Origin: an uncultured Gammaproteobacteria bacterium | Lineage (GTDB): Bacteria > Pseudomonadota > Gammaproteobacteria > JAAEPA01 | Assembly (NCBI GenBank): GCA_963731655.1 | Contig: CAVSWL010000005.1 | Span: 282,926 to 346,925, forward strand | Direction: 5' to 3' | Length of the DNA: 64,000 bases | Shown here: in pieces, positions 4,513 to 51,772 of the stretch | How the letters are laid out: each line of letters begins with the position of its first letter | How positions within the stretch are numbered: position 1 is the stretch's first letter | Program-made: the position numbers and the translations under genes | Notes under the pieces: generated by a model | Seen by the model: the letters and a program-made list of their open reading frames with translations, nothing else | Told to the model about the DNA's origin: nothing | Database searches by the model: none

Positions 4513-4791
4513 ACCCAAAACGATTCAGAGCAGATACTTTATGCAACTGGCAGGTTTACTGACAGCGAAGGCTCTGAAGCGTACAACCAACGACTGTCCG
4601 AACGGCGTGCGAATGCGGTCCGCGAGGCATTGCTACAGCGGGGAATCAATGCGGATCGGATTCGGTTGCGAGGCTATGGTGAAGCCTATCCCGTCGCCAC
4701 CAACGACACGCCAGCCGGTCGAGCGCAAAACCGTCGAGTTGAAATCATCGTTTCTGATCGTGATGGAGAGATACCGCAACGTGCTTCCTGA
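4513..4791 (+). pseudogene. OmpA-family C-terminal (peptidoglycan-binding) domain fragment
   Basis: Frame reads ...TGRFTDSEGSEAYNQRLSERRANAVREALLQRGINADRIRLRGYGEAYPVATNDTPAGRAQNRRVEIIVSD. It opens just after a TAG, has no start codon, and no N-terminal barrel. Confidence 0.55.
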
Positions 4792-5324
4792 ACATCTCCC
4801 CTTATATTAATAACAAGTCATAACAAGTCATGATTTGTTTACGCGATCTAGCTAACGCCTCGAAGTCATTTGAAACTCCCTCCGATGGCATTGTACGGTA
4901 TAAAAAAATCGGCTCGAAATGGTTAACTCGCGTGAATACTGCGCTTTAGTCCGGACTTGTACGCTACGCTTCCTTAAGTTTTCCACAAGTCCGGCCTTAC
5001 TCACAGTAGAGCGTTTAAAACTTTTAACCCGCTTCTCTCGCCCTTTTCCTGATTCTCACTTTGTCTTCCAGCCCGATGGAGCGAGTCGAGCCGTTCCAAA
5101 TCGCCTAAGATTCGAAGCTTCTTTCTTCGTCAAGAACACCGCTTGCTTTATACGTAAGATGAAGATTCGCAAGACTACCGGTGAATTCGCGGTCGTGCCG
5201 AATTCATTCTCGTTGAAAATTCCAGTTAACATTGCGACGAATCGAAACCACCGTCGTGTGGCTGGGTATGAATCGATTGGCTACAGATCCATGAAACGAT
5301 AAAAAGCCAAACACAAGGGCCGCG

Positions 5325-8027
5325 TCAGCTTCGATTGTTCGGCGTCGCTTGGTCCTGCAGCGCACGCAGGTGAGTTTGTATGGCTTCCGTGATTCGTGTT
5401 GCCGCATCCTCTCCTTGTCCCTGCTCGGCGAGCCGGCGAGAATCGATCGCCGTACCGAAACGCACTCTGAGGCGGCACAGGCGTGGAAAGAGACGCCCGG
5501 GGGGCATCGCCTCGTGACTGCCGTGGATGGATACTGCGACCACCGGCGCGGGAAAACGATCCAGAAGCCTACCGATGCCCGGGCGAAACGGCTGCAGCTC
5601 GCCACTCTCAGAGCGTTGGCCCTCGGGGAACCAGATCAGTCCGCGGTTTTGCTTGAGGACCGAAGCGGTCAGCGCTAGGCTGCTGCGCACGCCAGCCTGT
5701 GGATCGATCGGCAGTACCTGTGCCGCTCGGCTGACGAAGCGACTCAGTGGGTTGCTGAATGCCACCCCTGTCCATCCGCCCCAGTACAAGCTATGCAGCC
5801 GCGCCAAGGACAGCGCTGCCGCTACCGCGAAGGGGTCCAGATAACTGGCATGGTTGCAGGCAATCACTACCGGCCCCTGCATGGGCATCCGGTCGCGGTC
5901 TTGCACCTGCAAGCGGAACAGTCCCCGTAAGGCCAACCAGTTAATAGCATACAGGGTGTTGGCGACGGCCCGCAGAAGCGGGCCGCGGGCTTGCAGCCAG
6001 TGGCGGTGAGCGGCATCGAGAGCGTCCTCGGGATCATCAAGCGGGTCGGTGATCAGTTTGTCCTGTGCCGCGGAACTCACCAACTCGCGCAGTAGATCAC
6101 GCACGGTCTCGATGCCGCCGATGGCTTCCTCGTCGAGTTCCATGCCGGTACGCCGACCCAATTCCATGGTCAGATTAAGCCATGCCAGGGAATCCACGCC
6201 CAGTTCGCTCTGCAGGCGAGTGTCGGGCGTGAGTCCCCGTTTCGGATAGCGCTGTGCCAGCCAATCCCAGGTGTGGCGGGCTGCGGCGTGTTCCATCAAA
6301 CTGCGGTCTTCGGCGGACATCTCTTCGATGTCCAGCGGTGCAAGCTGTTGCGGTTCGCCGCCCTCGGCGCGGGCGCGCTCGTAACGCTCCTCAAGCTCAT
6401 GCCGCTTGATTTTGCCGAGTCGAGTGCGCGGCAGTGGGTTGCGCGTCGGCGTGGCATCGACGAGCCGCTGATAGGAAGGCAACTTGCGGGCGATCTCGCC
6501 AATCGTGCCTCGAATGCGCCGTTGAGAATCCTCGGAAACACCGCCGGTAGGCACCACAAGCGCCACTAGTTGCCCGTTATGCTGCAAAATGCCGATCTCC
6601 GCAATGGCTTCGTGGCCCGCATAGCGCGCTTCCAGATCGTCAGGCTGAATGTTTTCGCCCCCATCGGTCACGATCAGCGTCGATACCCGGCCGGTAATAT
6701 GCAGATAACCGTCATCGTCCAGCAAGCCGAGATCACCGGTGCGAAACCAGCCGTCGTGCGTAAACGTTTCCTCGGTCTTTCGTGGTTGATTTCGGTAGCC
6801 GGCGAATACATTCGGCCCACGGGCCTGGATTTCGCCTTCGTTGCTGCGCGATTCCTGCGCCGGCGGCGCGGCTTGCCGGTCGATGCGCAGTTCCACGCCA
6901 GGGGGCGGCCGACCCGCGCTACCCAGTCGCGTTCCGCCGGGTGAGTCGAGCGTCAGCAATGGCGCGGTCTCGGTCAGGCCGTAGCCCACCGCCACCTGCC
7001 AGCCCAGTGCTTCGAGGTTCAAGGCCAGCTGCTTGTCCAGCGCGGACCCGCCGCAGGCGAGCATTCGCAATTGCCTGCCTGTCTTGCGGTGCAGCGGATA
7101 CAGCAAGACCTTACCGATATGCCAACCGGTGCGGCGGCGCACGGAGCGGCTCAGTCGAAACAGGCCCCGGAAGAAAGTACGCCCGAGGAAACCGGCATTT
7201 TCAGCTTGCACGGTGATGCCTTCGAACAGGGCTGCATAGAACCGTGGCACGCCGATGATGACGCTCGCCGAGCCGTCGCGAACCGCCCGCATCACCTGCG
7301 GACCGGTCAGGGCGTGAGGAAGGATCAGGGTCAGTCCCATCAGTATTGGCGCCAACATGCCGATCACGAACGGATAGACATGGTGCAGCGGCAGGGGCAA
7401 CAGGATACGGTCGCCCTCATGGACTACGCCGGCCGCGCCTAAAGTGTCCAGTTGAAATTCCAGGTTACGGTGCGTCAGCGGCACCCCTTTAGGCGGCCCG
7501 GTGGTGCCCGAGGTATAAAACAACGCCGCGGTGGCGTCGGCCCGGTTATCAGGCAGCGTTGCGGCACTATCGGTCAGCGCACGCCAGCCTGGCATGCTGT
7601 CAGCTGTACTATCCAGAAGCATGAGCTGGGCTTGCGGCGCGGCTGCGTGCACGCGCTCGCGCTGCGCGGCGTTGGTGAACACCCAGCGAGCATCGCTGTT
7701 GTGCAGTATCCGTTGCAGTGTATCGTCGGCAAGCTGGACGTCGAGAGGTGTGACGACGGCGCCGGAGCGCAGTACGGCGAGCGCGGCGATGATCCATTCC
7801 GGCCGGTCGGCGCCGATCAGAACCACGCTTTCTCCGGGCTGGGTTCGCTCCCTTATGCCACGTGCTAGTGCCTGCACCTGTTCGCCGACACTGTGATAGG
7901 GCCATTGTTGCGTTTCCTTCTCCGTGTATGCTTGAAACAGGGGTTGCTCCCCTCGCTGGTCGAGTCCATCGATCAATTTGTCGAGTCGGGAGCGTGAGGT
8001 TGTTGCACTGGTGTTCGTTCGGCCCAT
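5325..8027 (-). CDS. tri-domain acyl-CoA/AMP ligase - acyl carrier domain - 1-acylglycerol-3-phosphate acyltransferase (Aas-like lipid re-acylation enzyme)
   Basis: 900 aa. AMP-binding motif FYTSGTTGPPKGV, phosphopantetheine attachment motif LGVDSLAWLNL, and PlsC motifs CNHASYLDP (HX4D) and FPEGQRS. Confidence 0.85.
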   Translation of the reverse strand: MGRTNTSATTSRSRLDKLIDGLDQRGEQPLFQAYTEKETQQWPYHSVGEQVQALARGIRERTQPGESVVLIGADRPEWIIAALAVLRSGAVVTPLDVQLADDTLQRILHNSDARWVFTNAAQRERVHAAAPQAQLMLLDSTADSMPGWRALTDSAATLPDNRADATAALFYTSGTTGPPKGVPLTHRNLEFQLDTLGAAGVVHEGDRILLPLPLHHVYPFVIGMLAPILMGLTLILPHALTGPQVMRAVRDGSASVIIGVPRFYAALFEGITVQAENAGFLGRTFFRGLFRLSRSVRRRTGWHIGKVLLYPLHRKTGRQLRMLACGGSALDKQLALNLEALGWQVAVGYGLTETAPLLTLDSPGGTRLGSAGRPPPGVELRIDRQAAPPAQESRSNEGEIQARGPNVFAGYRNQPRKTEETFTHDGWFRTGDLGLLDDDGYLHITGRVSTLIVTDGGENIQPDDLEARYAGHEAIAEIGILQHNGQLVALVVPTGGVSEDSQRRIRGTIGEIARKLPSYQRLVDATPTRNPLPRTRLGKIKRHELEERYERARAEGGEPQQLAPLDIEEMSAEDRSLMEHAAARHTWDWLAQRYPKRGLTPDTRLQSELGVDSLAWLNLTMELGRRTGMELDEEAIGGIETVRDLLRELVSSAAQDKLITDPLDDPEDALDAAHRHWLQARGPLLRAVANTLYAINWLALRGLFRLQVQDRDRMPMQGPVVIACNHASYLDPFAVAAALSLARLHSLYWGGWTGVAFSNPLSRFVSRAAQVLPIDPQAGVRSSLALTASVLKQNRGLIWFPEGQRSESGELQPFRPGIGRLLDRFPAPVVAVSIHGSHEAMPPGRLFPRLCRLRVRFGTAIDSRRLAEQGQGEDAATRITEAIQTHLRALQDQATPNNRS

Positions 8028-8173
8028 GGAGTTTTGTTCCGCCGTGACGGGAGTGAGATCAGTACAGCTGTACCGCGCACGAAAAGTACCTTACGTTTCT
8101 ATCGACCATCTTGCCCGGAGAAGCCTGAAAAGGACATGATGCAGCCGACGCCGGGGCTCCGGTGCCGGTGTTG

Positions 8174-8380
8174 TCATCCCCCCATGTTCTGCGCTACGAA
8201 GTGCCGGTTAACCCGGTGCCAAAATGCCTCGATGTATTGAGCGTGGGCATTGCGGTCGTCGATAGAGTAGGCATGTTCCCATACCTCACAGCTTAGCAAC
8301 GGCCGCTTGTCATCGGCCATCGGGTTGTCCGGCTGGGCTTCGTGCCGAGTTTCCCATGCCGCTGTCGGACATTGTCGCAT
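8174..8380 (-). pseudogene. Fe/Mn superoxide dismutase C-terminal fragment
   Basis: ...AQPDNPMADDKRPLLSCEVWEHAYSIDDRNAHAQYIEAFWHRVNRHFVAQN aligns to the C-terminus of sodB at 14569-15153 (DVWEHAYYIDYRN...YIEAFWN). The N-terminal three-quarters are absent. Confidence 0.65.
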
Positions 8381-8454
8381 TTGTCCAATTACCCTCTATC
8401 GAGGCTAATATGCCTCTGATATAACTTCAAAATAACTTCCAATCGCGCGGGTAG

Positions 8455-8472
8455 CATTGAAATAAATCAATG
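8455..8472. promoter_or_regulatory. palindrome CATTGAAATAAATCAATG (family A site)
   Basis: 75 bp upstream of the sod fragment. Confidence 0.45.
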
Positions 8473-9041
8473 CACCAGTCATGGGAAAACGGTTAGCTGT
8501 ACACGTTTACCTATGATTGAGGTTTGAATGAATGAGTGAAGGGGTGGGATAGGACAACGGTGTAGGCCGCAAGACCTTACCGGATGCATCTGCAGTCTCT
8601 GGACGATGAAGAAGGCGAGTGAAATAGATTTAATTTGACGACCAATTGTGGACCGTGCGTTGTCTTGTCGTGCATACCGGCAGCTGCTTGCTGGGCAAGG
8701 AAGTGCTGATTTCCCCATAGCCGATGACGAAGGTAGACCTGGAGATTACACGCCATCAACTCAGCGGGGTCACCATGAACCGAACGGCGTGCTAGGAAGC
8801 CAGTAATCAGTCGCCTGTCGATTTCCATTGTTTGCGGTTTTTCACCGCATTTTCCCAGTGTTCAATGCATTCTAATCCGCAAAAGTAGAGGATGGAATCA
8901 GCGTTCTCGGGTGTCATGGCGGCGTCGCGGGAAATCTCCCTGCGGCGGATATGACATTTCAAGAGAATCTCCTAAAAACAGGTGCTTATCTATCCTCCAT
9001 TCACCAGCCGCTGATGGAAACAAGGAGCAAAACAAGGCGCA

Positions 9042-9799
9042 ATGAAAACTTCGTTGAAAGTAAACTTGACCCACCGCTGCATCTATTTCATCCGGCGTCT
9101 GACCCATAAAATCGGACCTTCGGAAATGGCTGTGCTCATATCTCTGGCGCTGATCATGGGTGGCGTTTGGCTGTTTGCCGAGATCGCCGATGAAGTCATA
9201 GCACAGGAAAAGATCGGTTTCGATCAGCGGATCCTTTCGATGCTGCGACCGCCTGGCCCACCGTGGCAGCCGGTCGGTCCCGCGTGGCTCGTGCAAATCG
9301 CCAGGGATATCACCGCGCTCGGCGGGCTTACCTTATTGACCTTGCTTAGCGCGCTGGTCTCCATTTATTTCGGGCTGAAACGAAGATTCAGTTTGATGAT
9401 ACTGACGCTTTCGACGCAGATCGGCGGGGTGGCGGCCAGCCATGCGCTCAAGATTTACTGCGGACGAGCCCGTCCGGATATCGAGCAACTCGTAACGGTG
9501 TCGACTTTAAGCTTTCCCAGCGGCCATGCCATGATGTCCGCCGTAGTTTATCTCACCTTGGGTGCCTTGCTGGCACGTGCTGAAGACAAAAACGATTCAA
9601 GATCTTCTTTTTAGGCACGGCACTGCTACTGACCTTGCTGGTGGGAATAAGCCGAGTCTATCTGGGAGTTCACTTCCCAACCGATGTGCTGGCCGGCTGG
9701 ATCGTGGGCGCCGTATGGGCCATGATTTGCCTGGGCGCTGCCACCCTCATCAGCCGGCGGTACGATTCGTCCCGTCGGGCTGTGGAATCCGACGCTTGA
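9042..9799 (+). pseudogene. PAP2-family phosphatase (undecaprenyl-diphosphatase/PgpB-like), frameshifted
   Basis: Frame 1 (9042-9614) has KxxxxxxRP and PSGH motifs and stops after ...ARAEDKNDSRSSF. A second frame from ~9590 continues with ...FFLGTALLLTLLVGISRVYLGVHFPTDVLAGW (the third PAP2 motif SRxxxxxHxxxD) to 9799. The shift maps to the A5 run at 9588-9592. Confidence 0.6.
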
Positions 9800-9931
9800 C
9801 CGCCGCCCTGACCAAACCGGTCGTGAGGAGTATCGGGTGCCGGTCTGTCTGTATAACCCTGCCGATCCCTGCAATTCTCAAATGGTGCATTCTATGGCGG
9901 ATGCTGCTCTAGGGGCGTTCTCGGTCCTCTA

Positions 9932-44338: not shown

Positions 44339-45997
44339 ATGGTCATACATAACCGCCAGATCGCCAATCTATTTGCCAGACTAGCCGACCTGATGGAGTT
44401 GGATGGCGCCAATCCGTTTCGCGTCCGCTCCTACCGCCAGGCGGCACAGACCATCGCCGGCCTTTCCGATACCCTCGTCAAGCGGGTGCGAAACGGTGAA
44501 GATCTGACCGACCTGCCAAGTATCGGCAAAAGCATTGCGGAAAAGATCGCTACCATTGTGGAAACGGGGCGCTTGCCCCAGCTCGAGGAACTCGAAAAAC
44601 GGATGCCTGCGGAGCTCAGCGAGGTGATGAGGCTATCTGGCCTCGGATCCCAACGGGTAAAACTCTTGCACCAGGATCTGGGCGTCGATAGCCTGGCGGA
44701 TCTGGAGCGGGTGGTCGAGCGCCACGAGGTGCGCGAGCTTCCCGGCTTCGGCGCCAAGACCGAGCAGAGCATCGGCGAACGGCTGGCCCGCTGGGAAGGG
44801 GCTGAGCGACGCACGCCACTGCCGCAGGCGGAAGAAATCGCCCGGTCCCTGCTGGACTATCTCAAGGCTATCGACGGAATTAAGGATCTGACGATCGCAG
44901 GCAGTTATCGTCGCCGCAAGGACACCTTGGGCGACCTCGATATCCTGGTCACGGCCACGCAGGGCGCACCGGTAATGGAGCGATTCGTCGGCTACGACGA
45001 AGTGCGGGAGATTGTTACTCAAGGCCAAGCCCGTTCCACCGTGATCCTGAGCTCCGGCATGCAGGTGGATCTGCGGCGGGTGCCGCAGCTTAGCTACGGC
45101 GCGGCGCTGCATTATTTCACCGGTTCCAAGTCTCACAACATCGCGGTGCGCCGGATGGGTGTCAGGAAAGGTTTGAAGATCAACGAATACGGTGTGTTCC
45201 GAGGCGACAAGAGGGTCGGCGGACGCACCGAGGAGCAAGTCTACGAAAGCATCGACCTCCCTTATATCGAGCCGGAGCTACGCGAGAACCAAGGCGAGAT
45301 CGATGCTGCCGGTGAAGGCAAACTGCCGCATCTGGTTACGCTCGCGGACATACAAGGTGATTTGCATGCCCACACTCGGGCCAGCGATGGCTACGACAGC
45401 CTGGAGACCATGGCGGAAGGCGCCGCCAAATGTGGCTATGCTTATCTTGCCATCACCGACCATTCGCAGCATCTGACCGTGGCCCACGGCCTGGATGAAC
45501 GACGCCTTGCTGCGCAGATCAACGAAATCGATCGGCTAAATGACAAGCTGGATGGCCGCATTGAGCTGCTTAAGGCGATCGAATTGGACATCCTCGAGGA
45601 TGGCACCTTGGATCTTCCGGATACGATCCTGAAACAGCTCGACCTTCGGGTGTGCTCAGTCCATTACAAATTCGATCTACCGCGAAACAAGCAGACCGAG
45701 CGTATCCAGCGTGCCATGGAAAGCCCCTACTTCAATATCCTGGCTCATCCCACCGGACGCCTGATCGGGGAGCGTGAGGCTTATGAAGTGGATCTGGAAA
45801 AGCTCATCGAAGCAGCGGCCAAGCACGGCTGCTTTCTAGAGGTGAATGCGCAGCCAAAACGCCTGGATCTGGATCCTGCGGGGTGTCGGTTGGCCAAGGA
45901 GGCGGGCGTAAAGGTCGCCATCTCTACCGACGCGCCAGGCATGGCGCGTAGCGTTGACGGGCGCTGGCAACGGAAGGCGAAAGCCGGCGGGAAGTGA
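44339..45997 (+). CDS. polX: DNA polymerase X family protein (Pol-beta-like nucleotidyltransferase + PHP phosphoesterase)
   Basis: HhH motifs, GSYRRRKDTLGDLDILV NT-transferase motif, and a C-terminal PHP domain (DLHAHTRASDG...AITDHS). Confidence 0.85.
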   Translation: MVIHNRQIANLFARLADLMELDGANPFRVRSYRQAAQTIAGLSDTLVKRVRNGEDLTDLPSIGKSIAEKIATIVETGRLPQLEELEKRMPAELSEVMRLSGLGSQRVKLLHQDLGVDSLADLERVVERHEVRELPGFGAKTEQSIGERLARWEGAERRTPLPQAEEIARSLLDYLKAIDGIKDLTIAGSYRRRKDTLGDLDILVTATQGAPVMERFVGYDEVREIVTQGQARSTVILSSGMQVDLRRVPQLSYGAALHYFTGSKSHNIAVRRMGVRKGLKINEYGVFRGDKRVGGRTEEQVYESIDLPYIEPELRENQGEIDAAGEGKLPHLVTLADIQGDLHAHTRASDGYDSLETMAEGAAKCGYAYLAITDHSQHLTVAHGLDERRLAAQINEIDRLNDKLDGRIELLKAIELDILEDGTLDLPDTILKQLDLRVCSVHYKFDLPRNKQTERIQRAMESPYFNILAHPTGRLIGEREAYEVDLEKLIEAAAKHGCFLEVNAQPKRLDLDPAGCRLAKEAGVKVAISTDAPGMARSVDGRWQRKAKAGGK

Positions 45998-46472
45998 CTC
46001 GAGGGTGAAAGTCCTTGGAGACCTGATGACGGGAACTCTAGCCGAACAGCAAGGGTGTCCACGCGAGGTGGAATCTGAAGGAAGCTGAAGGCAAACGTCT
46101 GGCCCGAGGCACACGAACGCATGTGAGGCATCGTCTTGTGGGTGAGGAAGCGTCGGTGTGCGAAGCCGAAGTCATCCGGAACGAGGTGGTGTATATGCGG
46201 CGGGGATGGACGGAAAGTCACGCGTCTTACCTGGGAGATCTGTCCACTTGCCTTGTGCTAGAGCAACCGAGAGGTTGGTCGATGGGTGGGCAGAAGTGAG
46301 CAGACGGGATAGTAGGTGAGTGTCAGGCGAAGCTAGTGAGGCACTCCGAGACCGAAAGGTGGAGCAAACGGATAGGCCGAGCGTAACGACACTCACTGAA
46401 GGCCTGAACAAGTGAACCGGCCCGATGCCGGAACCTCGATGCGGAAGGAGACACCGTTATGACAACTGAGAT

Positions 46473-47013
46473 GTGCAACGACCCGGGAAGGAGGCGGCCG
46501 GCAGTCGCCATGAGCCCGGTGTTGGGGGTCAAGCGGCGACGGCGGCGACGGAAGCCATCGGACCACCGACCGAAGCGTTGATGGAGCAGATTCTAGACAG
46601 AGAAAACCTACGAAACGCGTTGCAGCGGGTACAGGCCAATAACGGGGCACCGGGCGTAGACGGGATGACCGTGGACGAGCTACCGGACCACCTACGGGAG
46701 CACTGGCCCGCGATCCGAGAGCAGCTACTGAATATGACCTACAGGCCATCGCCGGTGCGGGAAGTCTACGTGCCCAAACCCGGCGGTGGTCAGCGGATGC
46801 TCGGTATACCCACCGTACTGGACGGCTCATCACCCAAGCGGTTTTGCGGGTGATGAGTCCGATCTTCGAACCCGGTTTTTCAGAGCACAGCTATGGGTTT
46901 CGCCCTGGACGTAGCGCACACCAAGCGGTTGAGCAGGCGTGTGGCTATATAGCCGAGGGTTACCGATGGTTGGTCGATATTGACTTGGAAAAGTTTTTCG
47001 ACGATTCGTCATA
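46473..47013 (+). pseudogene. group II intron reverse transcriptase, N-terminal part (RT domains 0-4), frameshifted and interrupted
   Basis: ...TVDELPDHLREHWPAIREQLLNMTYRPSPVREVYVPKPGGGQRMLGIPTVLD, then a 1-nt frame change at ~46830, then RLITQAVLRVMSPIFEPGFSEHSYGFRPGRSAHQAVEQACGYIAEGYRWLVDIDLEKFFD. The gene then runs into the nested element. Confidence 0.7.
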
Positions 47014-47025
47014 ATGCCCCCTGGT

Positions 47026-49239
47026 TCATGAAGAGTGGTTAAACAAGTCGAGCTGATTATCTACTACATTGATTCTTAGTCCTTTTCTGCGGCCCAGATA
47101 AACGTGGACGGCTTTGAGTTCGCCATTCTTTACACGCTGCAACACCGTTTGGCGCGAGACCCCCAGGATTTTAGTCGCTTCCTGCATAGTCACGTAATTC
47201 TCCGGAGCCTGTTCGACAAAGCGATTGCGCAGTTCCTCGGTGATCCGGATTTGCCACGGTGCACCCGGCGTAACCTGCTCGCCGGCAACGAATCCGTCGT
47301 TCACCCATCGGTGCAGCGTCGAAGGTGCGAGGTCCAGGATCTTAGCCGCTTGTTTGATACTCACCAAATCACCTTCGGGTGACTCGATCGGTGGTTCGAA
47401 ACGGAGGATATTCCAATGTCGGCGTAAATTGCCGACGAGGTTGGCGGTGAAGCGCAATCCACGCGCCGTGGTTCGACCCTGTCTGTTCAGGATACCGGCG
47501 ATGACGGTGTCCGGATAGTGAGTGGCTAATCGGCGGAGCAGTTCGATGGTGTCTTCATCCGTGCGCACGGTGGCTGGTCGAGAACGTGGGAGGTTGACAT
47601 CGAGTTCGGTCAGCAGTCCACCGCGCCAGCGCAGGGTCAGATGCGCACGCTTTTCGTCGCGACATACCGTGATGATGACTTCCTCGAGCAGAGTACGCAG
47701 CAGTTCCTTTTGGTCGCGGCATGTTGTGGTGGGTGCACACCACACGCGTTTGAGATCGTTACCGAACGAAAGGATGGCACGCCGTTCATCGGCGCTCAGT
47801 GTTTTGGGTCGTTGGGTTTCTCGACGCTCAAGCTCGGCTTGGGCCTGTTCGAGGTGACGTAACCGTTGTTCCCATTCGGCCTCCAGGCCGCGTGCGACTA
47901 GCCTATTTTCGGGCTCTACAGATCGGTAGCGGCGTTCGGCCCGCTCGGCCTCATAGCGAGCGCGTTCGAGCGCCAAGCGCCATTGTGCCAAGGCGGCATC
48001 GTGGTTGGCTTCTATCTGCTCAGCGGCGATCAATGCGGCCTTCACACCGGCGGGCGAGAGTGCCTCAACAAAGGCCTCGGTGACAGCCTGATCGATTTGC
48101 ACACCGCCGACGTTGAGGCAATAGACGCCTCGACCCTCGACGATGTCTTTGCCTGCACAATGATAGCCTGGGGTGTGGTTTCTCCCGCGGTAATGGGTGC
48201 GCAGCCGGCGTCCGCAATGACCACAGGTTGCCAAACCTTGCAGCAAGGCCGCCCCTTCTCTCACCGCGCCGCCACCTTTGTGGGGTTGTGGGCGGGTATT
48301 ACTGGCAATACGGGTTTGATTGGCTTCATAGGTCGCCCAGTCGATATAACCTTCATGGTGTTCGTGGATGAGCACACCCCATTGCGACTGAGGGAGTTTG
48401 CGGACGCGTTTTCTCACCCGTCCGTGCTCATCGACATAGCGCTCATGTCGCGTTTTACCATAGACATAGGCTCCCGCATACACTGGGCTGCTCAGCACGC
48501 TGTGGATCGCATGATAGGTGGGTGCGACCCACTGGATGTCACGCAACTGGATCGACTGCAGAGGAAAGTCCAGACCCTCAGAACGGAACCATAACCAGAC
48601 CCGACGCACTGAGCCGAACTCTTCGAAGCGCTCAAAAACTGTGCGTATAGCGCCCGTGACCGCCTCATCGGGATGCAAGCGCACCTCACCGTCGGCTTCG
48701 CCCCAGACCAGGCCGACCGGCAGCCCTCGGCGCAGTTCCCCGCGCGTGGCTTTGTTGCGAATGCCGCCATCAAGACGGGCTCGCAGGATATGAAGCTCTG
48801 CTTCAGACATGGTCCCTTTCAACCCGAGCACGAGCCTGTCGTTGAACTGCGCCGGGTGATAGAGGCCATCGGCGTCACCAATCAGAGTATCGGTCATGGC
48901 ACACAGATCGAGCAACTGATACCAATGGGCGTTATTGCGTGCCAAGCGCGAGACCTCGAGGCCGAGAATGATCCCGACCCGTGCCAGCGCTACCTCAGCG
49001 GTCATGCGGGCGAAGCCGGTGCGCGCCGTGACGCTGGCACCGGACAGGCCCAGGTCTTCGTCAATGATCGTCACCTGCTCAGGTTGCCAACCGAGGGCGC
49101 AGGCCTTGTCGAGCAGCGCATATTGACGTTCGGTGGACTCGCGGTTGTATTCGACTTGGGTGGTGGTGGATTGGCGCACATAGACAAAGGCGGCGCGGTT
49201 TAAATGATTCGGCGTGACTTTGCTTGTTTCAGTCATCAT
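47026..49239 (-). CDS. large serine recombinase (resolvase catalytic domain, recombinase domain, zinc ribbon, coiled coil, C-terminal HTH)
   Basis: N-terminal AFVYVRQSTTTQ with catalytic Ser; zinc-ribbon cysteines CGHCGRRL...YHCAG; C-terminal MQEATKILGVSRQTVLQRV HTH. AGGAGAAAG SD before ATGATG. Confidence 0.85.
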   Translation of the reverse strand: MMTETSKVTPNHLNRAAFVYVRQSTTTQVEYNRESTERQYALLDKACALGWQPEQVTIIDEDLGLSGASVTARTGFARMTAEVALARVGIILGLEVSRLARNNAHWYQLLDLCAMTDTLIGDADGLYHPAQFNDRLVLGLKGTMSEAELHILRARLDGGIRNKATRGELRRGLPVGLVWGEADGEVRLHPDEAVTGAIRTVFERFEEFGSVRRVWLWFRSEGLDFPLQSIQLRDIQWVAPTYHAIHSVLSSPVYAGAYVYGKTRHERYVDEHGRVRKRVRKLPQSQWGVLIHEHHEGYIDWATYEANQTRIASNTRPQPHKGGGAVREGAALLQGLATCGHCGRRLRTHYRGRNHTPGYHCAGKDIVEGRGVYCLNVGGVQIDQAVTEAFVEALSPAGVKAALIAAEQIEANHDAALAQWRLALERARYEAERAERRYRSVEPENRLVARGLEAEWEQRLRHLEQAQAELERRETQRPKTLSADERRAILSFGNDLKRVWCAPTTTCRDQKELLRTLLEEVIITVCRDEKRAHLTLRWRGGLLTELDVNLPRSRPATVRTDEDTIELLRRLATHYPDTVIAGILNRQGRTTARGLRFTANLVGNLRRHWNILRFEPPIESPEGDLVSIKQAAKILDLAPSTLHRWVNDGFVAGEQVTPGAPWQIRITEELRNRFVEQAPENYVTMQEATKILGVSRQTVLQRVKNGELKAVHVYLGRRKGLRINVVDNQLDLFNHSS

Positions 49240-49453
49240 CTTTCTCCTGCCTTGGGGCTTGCGGCGTTGCCGTCTGTGCAATCAGACGAGCCAGCACGTC
49301 GACGACGGCCAGGCGTTGTTCGTCGTTCAGTTGTGTCCACACCGCTTCGTGGGGGCAGGGGATGTCCAAGAACATCAGATGTCTTTGTTGCACAGTGGCG
49401 CTCCTCTGAGTTGGTGATACGTTGTCGAAGAGCATTGACGAGAGAGCCGGCAT
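49229..49453 (-). CDS. small ORF (74 aa) whose stop overlaps the recombinase start
   Basis: Stop TGA overlaps the recombinase ATGATGA (gat gat gac tga / atg atg act). Acidic C-terminus. Could be an accessory or directionality-factor-like protein. Confidence 0.4.
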   Translation of the reverse strand: MPALSSMLFDNVSPTQRSATVQQRHLMFLDIPCPHEAVWTQLNDEQRLAVVDVLARLIAQTATPQAPRQEKDDD

Positions 49454-49711
49454 GGAGCAAGTCGGAGAGCGGGGCGAGGACTTGCTTAGGCGCCGTTCGC
49501 CTAGCCTCAGAAGGGGCGTCTTCAGCCGAGGGCCAGTCAGTCCAATCGGCCGGGATCAGTGATCGACTTTCATCTGGGAGGATCAGTAGTAGGTGGAGCT
49601 GACCTCCTCGGTGGGTTTGCCATAACGCTTGCAGCGTTTGGCCTTCTAACGGATGGCGTCTACGAGTGATAGTAACGGGTCGCGGAAAGTCTTTGAGATG
49701 GGTAGTGTGTC

Positions 49712-50560
49712 GTGTTTTCTTTCGACCGAGTCAACCACGACATGCTCGTGAGTCGGGTAGCGAGGAAAATCAAGGACAAGCGACTCCTGAAACTGATCCG
49801 ACGCTATCTGAGCGCAGGGATCATGAGCGGGGGGGTGGTCAGTGCTCGACAAACAGGGACCCCTCAGGGGTCACCGCTTTCACCGTTATTATCGAATATC
49901 CTATTGGATGACTTTGATAAAGAACTCGAACGCAGGGGCCACTGCTTCTGCCGCTACGCTGATGACGCCAATATCTACGTCAAAAGCCGGCGTGCGGGAG
50001 AACGGGTGATGGCGTCACTAACGCATTTCCTGGAAGGCCGATTGCGATTGAAGGTGAATCGAGCCAAAAGTGCCGTGGATCGGCCCTGGAACCGAGCGTT
50101 TCTGGGCTACACGGTGACGAACCACCGCTCGCCGCGATTGAAACCGGCACCGAAGTCGGTCAAAAGGGCGAAGGATCGGATACGTCAGATTACCCAGCAG
50201 GGGCGGGGTCGTAATATCCGCCAGGTCATCAAGGAGATCAATGAATTTACCCGAGGATGGGTAGGCTACTTTCGGCTTGCCAGCGTGAAAGCCGCGTTCG
50301 AGCAGTTGGATCAATGGCTACGTCGTCGACTGCGCAAAATCCTTTGGGAGCAGTGGCGTAAACCAAAGACTCGGCGTCGAAAGCTGATAGCGCTAGGGGT
50401 TGAGGCGACGCGGGCACGTAAAGCAGCGGCCACCGGTCTTGGGGCTTGGTGGAACGCAGGGGCTTCGCACATGCATGCGGCAGTGACCATTCGGCTACTG
50501 GCTCAGTGGGGACTTCTCGGTCTGCTAGATCAACTCCGCAGTTGGCAGCGGTCCACTTGA
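49712..50560 (+). CDS. group II intron reverse transcriptase, C-terminal part (RT domains 5-7 incl. YADD, plus maturase X domain)
   Basis: Resumes at FSFDRVNHDMLVSRVARKIKDKRLLKLIRRYLSAG, continues through the YADDANIY motif and the thumb/X domain. No En domain. Confidence 0.75.
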   Translation: MFSFDRVNHDMLVSRVARKIKDKRLLKLIRRYLSAGIMSGGVVSARQTGTPQGSPLSPLLSNILLDDFDKELERRGHCFCRYADDANIYVKSRRAGERVMASLTHFLEGRLRLKVNRAKSAVDRPWNRAFLGYTVTNHRSPRLKPAPKSVKRAKDRIRQITQQGRGRNIRQVIKEINEFTRGWVGYFRLASVKAAFEQLDQWLRRRLRKILWEQWRKPKTRRRKLIALGVEATRARKAAATGLGAWWNAGASHMHAAVTIRLLAQWGLLGLLDQLRSWQRST

Positions 50561-51084
50561 ACCGCCGTGTACGGTCCCGTACGCACGGTGGTGTGGGCGG
50601 ACGGGAGGAGTAATGCTCCCTCCGACCCGATTCTCACAGCACGGCGAACTTACAAAATATGCGACTTGGAGTCGATCAAGCACGCCGCGGTTGGCTGGAA
50701 GCGGGTGATGTGATCAACACCCGTCGTATTGCTGATCTACGCCGGTTGTTGCAACGCGACTGAGCGTACGTCAGCAGATTGGCTAGCGATCCGGGGACAG
50801 CATGCATAGCCGATTATCGCTGCCCATCAACCTTTTCTTGCGTTTCCCCGAGGCAATGGTTCGACCGGTTGACGGCCGGGGGGATGGGCTGGGTTTGAGC
50901 ATCACCAATCGCCTGCTTGGAAAGCTCGATAGGCAGCTGGTAGTGTATAATCAACTCGATATGGGCAACTCCTGCCCCTATTCTTCTGACCGAACCTTTA
51001 AAGGAACTCACTCCGATTGTTGCGATAGAAGGACATCGGTCGGGGATTCATTGGATCGATTGGCGAATGAATGTGATACGTCGA

Positions 51085-51772
51085 TCAAATAGTGAGGTGT
51101 TTCCGCGCCATATCCTTTTTAATAATTTTTAGTGAGAGGCCATACCGAAGTGTTTCGGGCACCTCGTTGATGGCAAGAATGTCGTTGCACTCCACGGCGT
51201 CATAGTCCTCTTTATGGGTGAAGCTCAGCGGAACAATGCCGAAGTTGACCATGTTCTGCCAATGGATGCGGGCGAAACTCTTAGCGAGGATCACGCGCAG
51301 CCCCAGCGAGCGCGGCGCAAGGGCAGCGTGTTCACGGCTCGATCCCTGCCCGTAGTTATCCCCGGCAACCACAAACAAGCCCGTATCGCGATAGGGCTTG
51401 GTGCGCTCGCAAAATGTCGCATCGATCGGTTCGAAGACGAACCTGGCGATTGCCTCAATGTTGCTGCGGTAAGGCAGCACGCGGGCCCCCGCGGGCATGA
51501 TCTCATCGGTGGAGATTGTTGTCTTCAAACTTGAGCAGTACCGGCCCCTTGATTCGATTCGGCAAGGGTTCAAGTACGGGCAGCGGCTTGATGTTGGGAC
51601 CTTTTTCGATGGGCACGTCATGGCCATCGGGCAACGGAGCTAACATGACCAGGGTGCCGGTCGCATCCTGCGTAAGGGTCCGGTCGATCTTGATCGAGAT
51701 CTCCGCGCCCGGTGTCAGATTGCCCTGCATCAGGTGCGAAGCGATCGATGTTTGTGCAACGTTCATAGCCAT
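51085..51772 (-). pseudogene. aconitase-family remnant: short N-terminal segment fused to the C-terminal swivel domain, with a 1-nt frameshift
   Basis: ORF 51503-51772 has ...IDRTLTQDATGTLVMLAPL (an N-terminal aconitase motif) followed by the linker ...IKGPVLLKFEDNNL. ORF 51085-51627 continues in another frame with STDEIMPAGARVLPYRSN...GDNYGQGSSREHAALAP...SFARIH. The core domains are missing. Confidence 0.5.

Follow-up and report, generated by a model that had tools for sequence, protein, structure and literature searches.

The transposons Tn4451, Tn4453 and Tn5397, which carry the large serine recombinases (LSRs) TnpX and TndX, move through a circular intermediate whose joint creates the tnpX promoter. 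Circle-specific expression is also known from the Pcirc promoter of the integrative and conjugative element (ICE) ICEclc and from the pjunc promoters of the insertion sequences (ISs) IS911, IS2 and IS30, where a promoter is assembled or redirected by the joining of the ends. As to elements that settle in other mobile elements, helper-embedded phage-inducible chromosomal islands (PICIs) integrate in prophage late genes (PMC10111431), and integrative elements 'disrupting IstB_IS21' have been listed without analysis (PMC7192596), which is the nearest mention in the literature of what we describe here. We analyzed a 64,000-nucleotide stretch of DNA from an uncultured Gammaproteobacteria bacterium (contig CAVSWL010000005.1, positions 282,926 to 346,925; hereafter the window, to which all coordinates refer) and found at 46999-49722 a small element that encodes an LSR and two further open reading frames (ORFs) and that splits the reverse transcriptase (RT) gene of a group II intron. 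We consider it likely that this is an intact, recently active, cargo-less integrative element whose sole mobility enzyme is the LSR, and that it excises and integrates by the mechanism proposed below.

The initial annotation of this DNA had described a 2.7-kb insert in the intron RT flanked by TTTCGAC, and both parts of that description held. We found the 7-mer at both junctions (46996-47002 and 49720-49726), and deletion in silico of the 2,724 bp at 46999-49722 gave a single continuous RT frame (…DLEKFFD|RVNHD…). Across the insertion point the rejoined RT reads ...WLVDIDLEKFFDRVNHDMLVSRV..., the two sides of the break being …GYRWLVDIDLEKFFD|RVNHDMLVSRVARK… and the repaired stretch that spans the junction …AAGTTCTTCGAC…. 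Both RT halves match Pfam RVT_1, and the C-terminal half additionally matches GIIM. The N-terminal half carries a separate 1-nt frameshift near 46820-46826 (…GIPTVLD / RLITQAVLRVMSPIFEP…, i.e. …IPTVLD/RLITQAV…), which is independent of the insertion. Read in the sense of the recombinase, the order of the element is P' arm, DUF5372 body, small ORF, large serine recombinase and P arm, and its genes and the gene that it interrupts are as follows.

46999-49722, reverse strand: mobile element, 2,724 bp including one copy of the crossover dinucleotide; its removal rejoins the RT frame.
47026-49239, reverse strand: large serine recombinase, 737 aa, or 736 aa from the second ATG (the database form).
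49229-49393, reverse strand: small conserved ORF, 54 aa (VQQRHLMFLDIPCPHEAVWTQL…LARLIAQT…DDD), which overlaps the tail of orfA in another frame and has its stop just inside the recombinase gene.
49239-49721, reverse strand: body of orfA, with a DUF5372 domain at about 49434-49661, then a conserved helix (…LSDLLHAGSLVNAL…) and a low-complexity tail.
46581-46998, forward strand: N-terminal half of the intron RT (target, B' side), with the 1-nt frameshift.
49723-50560, forward strand: C-terminal half of the intron RT/maturase (target, B side), with the remainder of RVT_1 plus GIIM.

The domains that had been assigned to the recombinase (resolvase, recombinase, zinc ribbon and a C-terminal helix-turn-helix (HTH)) were recovered as Pfam matches: Resolvase at residues 17-168 (PF00239, E=4.6e-18), with the nucleophile motif VYVRQSTTTQ at residues 19-28, Recombinase at residues 197-313 (PF07508, E=1.1e-13), the zinc ribbon Zn_ribbon_recom at residues 332-389 (PF13408, E=2.5e-07) and, at the C-terminus, two excisionase-type HTH_17 domains (about 625-670 and 682-724). 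By eye, the region at about 400-500, in which A, E, R and L abound, seems helical. By exact look-up the 737-aa product is absent from the databases, which record the 736-aa form. In the features examined the protein agrees with LSR integrases: a catalytic domain, Recombinase and zinc-ribbon domains, distinct attachment sites on element and target (attP and attB) and, as far as can be read from the sequence, a 2-bp core without target duplication.

To see how common such elements are, we scanned one genome per species, which returned 353 related stretches (80 loci were examined), and searched protein databases at E<=1e-20, which returned at least 8,000 recombinase clusters. The best 120 protein matches among these clusters are 711-741 aa long, at least 73% identical and bear generic names only. 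Many of the relatives lie on contigs of 2.7-2.9 kb, the signature of a multicopy repeat in short-read assemblies, and in PLSDB we found relatives on 479 plasmids (288 of them conjugative), annotated as 'recombinase family protein' and 'hypothetical protein'. Cultured carriers include Pseudomonas mandelii JR-1 (plasmid NZ_CP005961, three places), Mycetohabitans, Paraburkholderia and Mesorhizobium sp. AR07 (17 places). RT fragments flank the LSR on one or both sides in 53 of the 80 loci (tblastn with the rejoined RT). In nearly all of these the break lies at RT residue 140/141, and the RT is always antisense to the LSR. The target RTs are only 27-60% identical to that of the window, and relatives with at least 57% recombinase identity target the same RT codon, within the motif D-(L/I)-x-K-F-F-D-x-(V/I)-x-H and in one orientation. 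We distinguished 47 B (left) arms, mostly coding for F-(D/G)-x-(I/V)-x-H, and 38 B' (right) arms, mostly coding for D-x-D-(I/L)-x-x-(F/Y), and these arms represent dozens of independent insertions at one RT motif codon. The suggestion that the insert uses another mobile element as a safe haven is thus borne out across the family. The few off-target copies, all with the same AA crossover, lie in a short-chain dehydrogenase-like gene (L027, …DTNVRGVF|LCLRHQL…), in another gene (L035) and in a degenerate RT-like sequence (L059).

Copies within one genome are especially informative. In several long-read metagenome-assembled genomes (MAGs), copies that are at least 99.5% identical have different flanks, and their identity ends exactly at the element ends (L023/L027/L065, L032/L033/L059, L036/L041 and L006/L055 are groups from the same MAG). 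Other sequencing runs contain the window variant itself, 99.8-100% identical, in no fewer than four RT contexts, and these copies lose identity at the element ends, or within about 14 bp of them where the conserved RT flank also matches. These comparisons show that the element itself is the unit that moves, and the recurrence of the window variant in other RT contexts indicates that it was active recently. The initial annotation had looked to further copies and empty target sites for a definition of the att sites; both are available, the family giving a core of AA and one locus (L014) having unfilled RT sites next to a filled one.

Sister clades whose LSRs are about 40% identical have the same three-ORF layout and use other target sites. 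One (L066-L068) occupies group II intron RTs at L-G-I-P-T|x-x-D-R, and in L073 the same G-I-P-T motif is occupied in reverse orientation, the central dinucleotide being the complementary one. Another is inserted in the IS21-type IstB gene at Walker A (the rejoined protein matches IstB_IS21, E=1.3e-41), and a third in an IS4-type DDE transposase at R-W-x-(V/I)-E-x-F|F-K (the rejoined protein matches DDE_Tnp_1, E=1.3e-14). The IstB and IS4-type transposase insertions are found at loci L070-L072, L074, L075, L079, L080; L076-L078. Taken together, the family specializes in conserved motif-coding DNA of other selfish elements.

Some individual loci deserve separate mention. In several of them, from a Gammaproteobacteria MAG (L006, L038, L046 at about 4600-9916, and L008), nesting is triple, with the element in a group II intron that itself lies in what is by eye an IS3-type transposase gene (…NHVWSTDI|); the 5' end of this intron is GTGTG, preceded by CACCGACATCA, and the composite is 100% identical at several loci. 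In one MAG the left RT flanks of L024 and L025/L026 are identical and the right flanks differ, and the reverse holds for L024/L028/L056; this exchange of flanks among the five loci suggests recombination between copies, that is, repeat-mediated rearrangements. At L024 the C-terminal half of the RT is broken further by about 2 kb. The TOL plasmid pWW53 (L083, NC_008275.1 76006-78369) and pDK1 carry a frameshifted copy adjoining xylS; that of pWW53, bordered on its left by an RT fragment (FDEIDHEW…), is annotated as two 'recombinase family protein' coding sequences and one hypothetical protein.

To locate the crossover, we compared attL with attR, kept in register, for about 30 distinct insertions. 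Their common core is AA, sometimes AAG or CAA, and GTCGAAA occurs solely in the variant of the window. The intersection of all shared cores is AA in the recombinase sense, which in the RT motif K-F-F-D corresponds to TT in the codon for the second Phe, and this points to a canonical 2-bp serine-recombinase crossover with cleavage at AA. The sites in the window are the following.

46997-46998: crossover dinucleotide next to the RT N-terminal half, TT on the forward strand and AA in the recombinase sense, inside the TTTCGAC at 46996-47002.
49721-49722: crossover dinucleotide next to the RT C-terminal half, inside the TTTCGAC at 49720-49726.
46999-47019, reverse strand: P arm of attP, GGGCATTATGACGAATCGTCG, strongly conserved across the family.
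49700-49720, reverse strand: P' arm of attP, AGAAAACACGACACACTACCC, which also codes for K-K-T-R-H-T-T of the DUF5372 leader.

Rebuilt from both ends, attP is an imperfect palindrome of 21-2-21, in which 12 of the 21 positions of P agree with the reverse complement of P' (mean over shuffles 5.7, P ~0.0009). It is strongly conserved, and attB is different from it and degenerate. A pattern search for joined P and P' arms returned two metagenome contigs (L081 and L082) with attP and a single core, in the layout LSR 3' end, attP, left end, small ORF, LSR 5' end. The excised circle, or at least the head-to-tail junction, occurs in nature.

The attachment site also bears on a gene that had been overlooked, for the element was initially taken to consist of the recombinase and one further ORF only. 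A third conserved frame, orfA, lies at 49239-49721: upstream of the small ORF it shows codon-periodic conservation in the left-end alignment, and it matches Pfam DUF5372 (PF17342) with 26.2 bits at a cut-off of 25, over profile positions 4-75 of 78; orfA of relatives scored 52.8, 25.7 and 24.3 bits. In the AlphaFold2 (AF2) model, residues 11-62 form a four-strand beta domain (predicted local distance difference test, pLDDT, 88-96), followed by a helix and a disordered tail. A Foldseek search of the DUF5372 model against the PDB gave nothing significant (best E=0.04), the top matches being generic SH3-like barrels (KOW, Tudor, PsaE and PetP). The orfA stop codon (TGA, 49236-49238) overlaps the recombinase ATG (ATGA) in the window and in most members.

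We observed that integrated copies of orfA are without a start. In the window, no ATG, GTG or TTG lies upstream of the domain, and a TGA of the flank stands in frame three codons before the junction; likewise, 27 out of 29 integrated copies have no orfA start before an in-frame flank stop, which is met within 1-53 codons. The start signals seem to lie at the opposite end of the element, where the most conserved motif, GGGGGCATTATGA, consists of a Shine-Dalgarno-like run plus ATG. In the P arm of the window these proposed signals are GGGGG at 47017-47021, to which the LSR stop lies 9 nt upstream, and ATG at 47010-47012. Joining the ends puts the P-arm ATG in frame with orfA and yields an ORF of 146-178 aa in 27 of the 29 reconstructed junctions, and the same ATG is in frame in the real attP contigs L081 and L082. 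Moreover, the split-gene architecture is the same in three clades with about 40% LSR identity, in which the crossover dinucleotides are GG, GT and AA and the leader lengths differ by whole codons. Called orfA proteins number only 18 among 5.8 billion, compared with at least 8,000 LSR clusters, and their N-termini are heterogeneous (flank-derived, internal Met or partial). Three of them with short N-termini were considered as circle-derived genes and rejected, each starting at a fortuitous codon of the flank. Since the ribosome-binding site and ATG of orfA are in the right end and its body is in the left end, we infer that synthesis of the DUF5372 protein requires a transcript that crosses attP, in a circle or a tandem copy. 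Downstream of the recombinase stop, the proposed orfA ATG follows after only about 14 nt (47012-47026). One may speculate that, on the transcript of a circle, ribosomes that end the recombinase could re-initiate on orfA, giving a translational loop.

The small ORF is a different case. It had been described as a 74-aa ORF coupled to the recombinase, and its stop does overlap the recombinase start, but the length was probably too great: among 45 homologues (mean column identity 69%) conservation is limited to 54 aa, and the start used by gene callers and homologues is the GTG at 49393, with GAGGAG ahead of it. The small ORF is present in every clade, including those at 40% identity, and always ends a few nt inside the LSR gene. 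Within the 150 nt that both frames share, conservation is 33% for the small-ORF frame and 23% for the orfA frame. Known directionality factors dock on the LSR coiled coil. A likeness to such factors, which the initial annotation had raised, did not emerge: the ORF has no Pfam or NCBIfam match except a sub-threshold one to iHD-CE, and its AF2 model consists of three helices with a mean pLDDT of 67. Because the small ORF can be expressed from the integrated copy and orfA cannot, we nevertheless regard the 54-aa product as the better candidate for a directionality (excision) factor.

Based on these observations, we propose the following mechanism. LSR dimers would bind attP on the excised circle and, within an RT gene, a degenerate attB. 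They would cut both at AA with a 2-bp stagger, and then rotate and religate the strands. Excision would be the reverse reaction, aided by a directionality factor for which the best candidate is the 54-aa ORF coupled to the LSR start. The DUF5372 protein (a predicted SH3-like beta domain plus helix), translated only across attP, might act as a regulatory switch. The orfA frame covers the start and ribosome-binding site of the small ORF, and its stop overlaps the LSR ATG in most copies; circularization could thus raise translation of the LSR and lower that of the small ORF, which would favor re-integration. The target provides a site that is present in many copies, moves horizontally and is expendable for the host, and insertion destroys the RT/maturase of the intron. 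Beyond the window, we suggest, with slightly more doubt than conviction, that the elements form a very large, unnamed superfamily of cargo-less LSR elements that are obligate hyperparasites of mobile elements, whose clades recognize DNA coding for RT (K-F-F-D or G-I-P-T), IS21 IstB Walker A or IS4 DDE motifs, and all of which share the split DUF5372 switch that senses topology and biases the element toward re-integration.

Several observations weigh against these proposals. Recombination, circles, directionality and the translation of orfA are throughout read from sequence. The contigs L081 and L082 may be tandem copies instead of circles, and we found no terminal overlaps, a sign of circles, in the element-sized short contigs. 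Conservative recombination alone leaves the three to eight identical copies per genome unexplained. As for orfA, its score in the window is barely above the Pfam threshold and that of one distant clade just under it (24.3 vs 25), its stop misses the LSR start in some members (the 146-aa and 82-aa versions), and the P-arm ATG and the P' arm serve recombinase binding as well, such that their conservation alone is no proof of coding. Finally, neither the small ORF nor the DUF5372 protein resembles a known directionality factor, and a scan for sigma-70 promoter and terminator consensus sequences gave nothing usable for the recombinase operon.

The number of copies invites another explanation, namely that copy number and spread result mainly from hitch-hiking on the carriers (retrohoming in trans, IS transposition and plasmids), that movement by the LSR is rare, and that the circle-only gene is a by-product of recombinase-binding sequence. 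We consider this unlikely as a general account, even though carriers clearly contribute: one MAG holds six 100%-identical intron-plus-element composites, several of them within the same IS3-type element, and therefore part of the copy number does come from hitch-hiking. The 479 plasmids with relatives, 288 of which are conjugative, and the conservative nature of LSR recombination fit the same explanation. However, in many genomes identical copies of the element occupy different introns, and their identity breaks off at the att arms. As to a by-product gene, indels in the orfA leader are in frame and stops are absent from it in four clades, with no alternative start, and a constraint on DNA binding alone hardly explains this.

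One could also imagine that the family is kept as a host-beneficial neutralizer of mobile elements, i.e. as a defense rather than a pure parasite. In its favor, all primary targets that were mapped are motifs of selfish elements with a role in catalysis or nucleotide binding, and insertion inactivates the target. Yet safe-haven targeting explains the same facts, such motifs being the most conserved DNA in multicopy, dispensable and horizontally mobile genes, and in the window the host may suffer from the loss of the maturase, through a block of splicing out of polX. No sign of a defense function turned up, though no search aimed at it (e.g. with PADLOC) was made. We regard a defensive role as improbable.

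The data leave very little room for a recombinase module that is native to, or domesticated in, a class of group II introns (e.g. for DNA-level mobility or inversion), with no invader. Most members with at least 57% identity do lie inside introns, and whole intron-plus-element composites are repeated in one genome. On the other hand, the insertion interrupts the RT at a codon of a catalytic motif and thereby inactivates it, unfilled RT sites stand beside a filled one, and sister clades reside in IstB and IS4 transposase genes. Native intron-associated genes were the alternative that the initial annotation itself had named, and it fails on the identical elements that we found in unrelated introns and in non-intron genes (the dehydrogenase-like gene of L027, and L035), with identity ending at the element ends.

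The 7-bp repeat remains to be explained. The initial annotation had allowed that it was part of a shared att core or the mark of a different insertion chemistry, and only the former stands. A chance match of 7 bp in fixed register has a probability of about 6e-5, and the 7-mer was found again in independent insertions of the same variant. The right-end GTCG ahead of the crossover belongs to the conserved P arm and is element sequence. The repeat represents the attP core of this variant, coinciding with the consensus attB core and involving no target duplication; because the attP core of the sub-lineage equals the consensus attB core, the 7-mer reappears at each insertion. That it is instead a target-site duplication from non-canonical, staggered-cut and repair-filled insertion is scarcely credible, since, for all that TTTCGAC flanks every insertion of the exact variant, the identical stretch falls to AA, AAG or CAA in about 30 insertions of relatives with the end geometry fixed, the GTCG is element sequence, and attP contigs have a single core.

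The carrier of the element has the ribozyme domains and the RT/maturase ORF (RVT_1 and GIIM) in domain IV that characterize a group II intron.

45932-50631, forward strand: host group II intron, which measures about 1.98 kb once the insert is removed, with a supported 3' end and an approximate 5' end.

Rfam RF02001 (group II intron D1-D4) matches at 46058-46225 with 100.4 bits, a weaker group II intron match at 46258-46333 is under its gathering score, and RF00029 (domain V/VI) matches at 50560-50631 with 41.6 bits; similarity to other introns stops at 50631. The intron interrupts polX within the PHP motif ISTD(A/S)HSTANL, and the joined exons align to Thermus PolX 3b0x, with the exon junctions at 45929-45935 and 50631-50640. 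The canonical GUGYG is absent at the 5' exon junction, as the exon join needs a boundary at about 45932-45935 and the first GUGAC lies at 45994 (59 nt downstream), and no relative aligned across this 5' boundary region. Because the insert and the frameshift destroy the intron's own maturase, splicing would need a maturase supplied in trans, and polX may be inactivated. Further downstream, at 51085-51772 on the reverse strand, a pair of neighboring short ORFs resembles, to the eye, pieces of an aconitase-family gene and may be a pseudogene.

These results name and explain a very common unannotated repeat, with at least 8,000 clusters, 353 matches in species-representative genomes and relatives on 479 plasmids, including pWW53. 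Our search of the non-subscription literature turned up no account of the family, of DUF5372 or of an LSR element within an intron RT, and the orphan family DUF5372, which may correspond to the y4bD/y4pK proteins of pNGR234a, now gains a context. The elements indicate that serine integrases are retargeted in nature between motif-coding sequences and tolerate a highly degenerate attB, which is relevant to integrase engineering; if the superfamily proposed above is real, it would supply natural integrases whose attB recognition is relaxed to the level of a motif. They also exemplify mobile elements that prey on mobile elements, in that an intron maturase, a transposase or IstB is killed, and through the insertion an intron that was silent in phenotype may come to disrupt a gene in earnest, here polX. 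The gene split across attP offers a testable way for a minimal element to tell the integrated from the excised state, and, if our proposal is correct, DUF5372 and/or the 54-aa protein would represent a new type of directionality control for serine integrases.

Compared with known systems, the family is closest in enzymology to the large serine integrases of phages and ICEs (Bxb1, phiC31, A118/LI), with which it shares the Resolvase, Recombinase and zinc-ribbon domains, a 2-bp non-palindromic crossover without target duplication, a quasi-palindromic attP of about 44 bp with a distinct attB, a central dinucleotide that sets orientation, and a small accessory gene next to the integrase. In contrast to these integrases, the present family has no cargo (2.7 kb), is multicopy like an IS element, uses as its degenerate attB the protein-motif-coding DNA of another mobile element, has a C-terminus longer by about 200 residues, which include two HTH domains of excisionase type, and has its attP inside a DUF5372 gene. 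An assignment as orthologue of XisF of the fdxN element was rejected, the best NCBIfam match (NF041201) scoring 60.7 bits at a cut-off of 375. IS607 elements are similar in being short, in using a serine-recombinase transposase and no DDE enzyme, and in having an excisionase/MerR-type HTH, but their TnpA is small, its HTH is N-terminal, target specificity is minimal and TnpB is often a partner. We can thus agree with the initial annotation in keeping the element apart from the IS607 type: in its 737-aa recombinase the catalytic domain comes first and HTH_17 is C-terminal, NF033518 scores 19.6 bits at a cut-off of 110, the same RT codon is used in 53 of 80 loci, and 2.7 kb leave no room for a further ORF such as TnpB.

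With the TnpX/TndX transposases the family shares an LSR as sole mobility enzyme and, as inferred here, excision as a circle that rewires expression. Those elements differ in their resistance cargo, their low target specificity at GA dinucleotides and, typically, a DUF4368 domain; the present LSR has no DUF4368 match and its crossover is AA in a long, specific site, such that membership of this type was rejected. Moreover, where their circle creates a promoter, that of the present family appears to complete a coding sequence, by bringing a ribosome-binding site and ATG to the body of the gene. ICEclc and IS911/IS2/IS30 likewise have a post-excision function that is switched on only by joined ends; in the present family, by comparison, the start codon and Shine-Dalgarno sequence would come from one end and the ORF from the other, with the recombination site within the reading frame. 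To our knowledge, there is no other case in which a start codon and the body of its ORF lie on opposite ends of an element with attP inside the reading frame. Finally, integrative and mobilizable elements (IMEs) in ICE conjugation genes and helper-embedded PICIs resemble the family in their site-specific integration in a conserved gene of a carrier element; these, however, are multigene elements with one type of carrier, whereas the present family consists of minimal three-ORF elements whose clades have been retargeted among the intron RT (at two motifs), IS21 IstB and the IS4 transposase.

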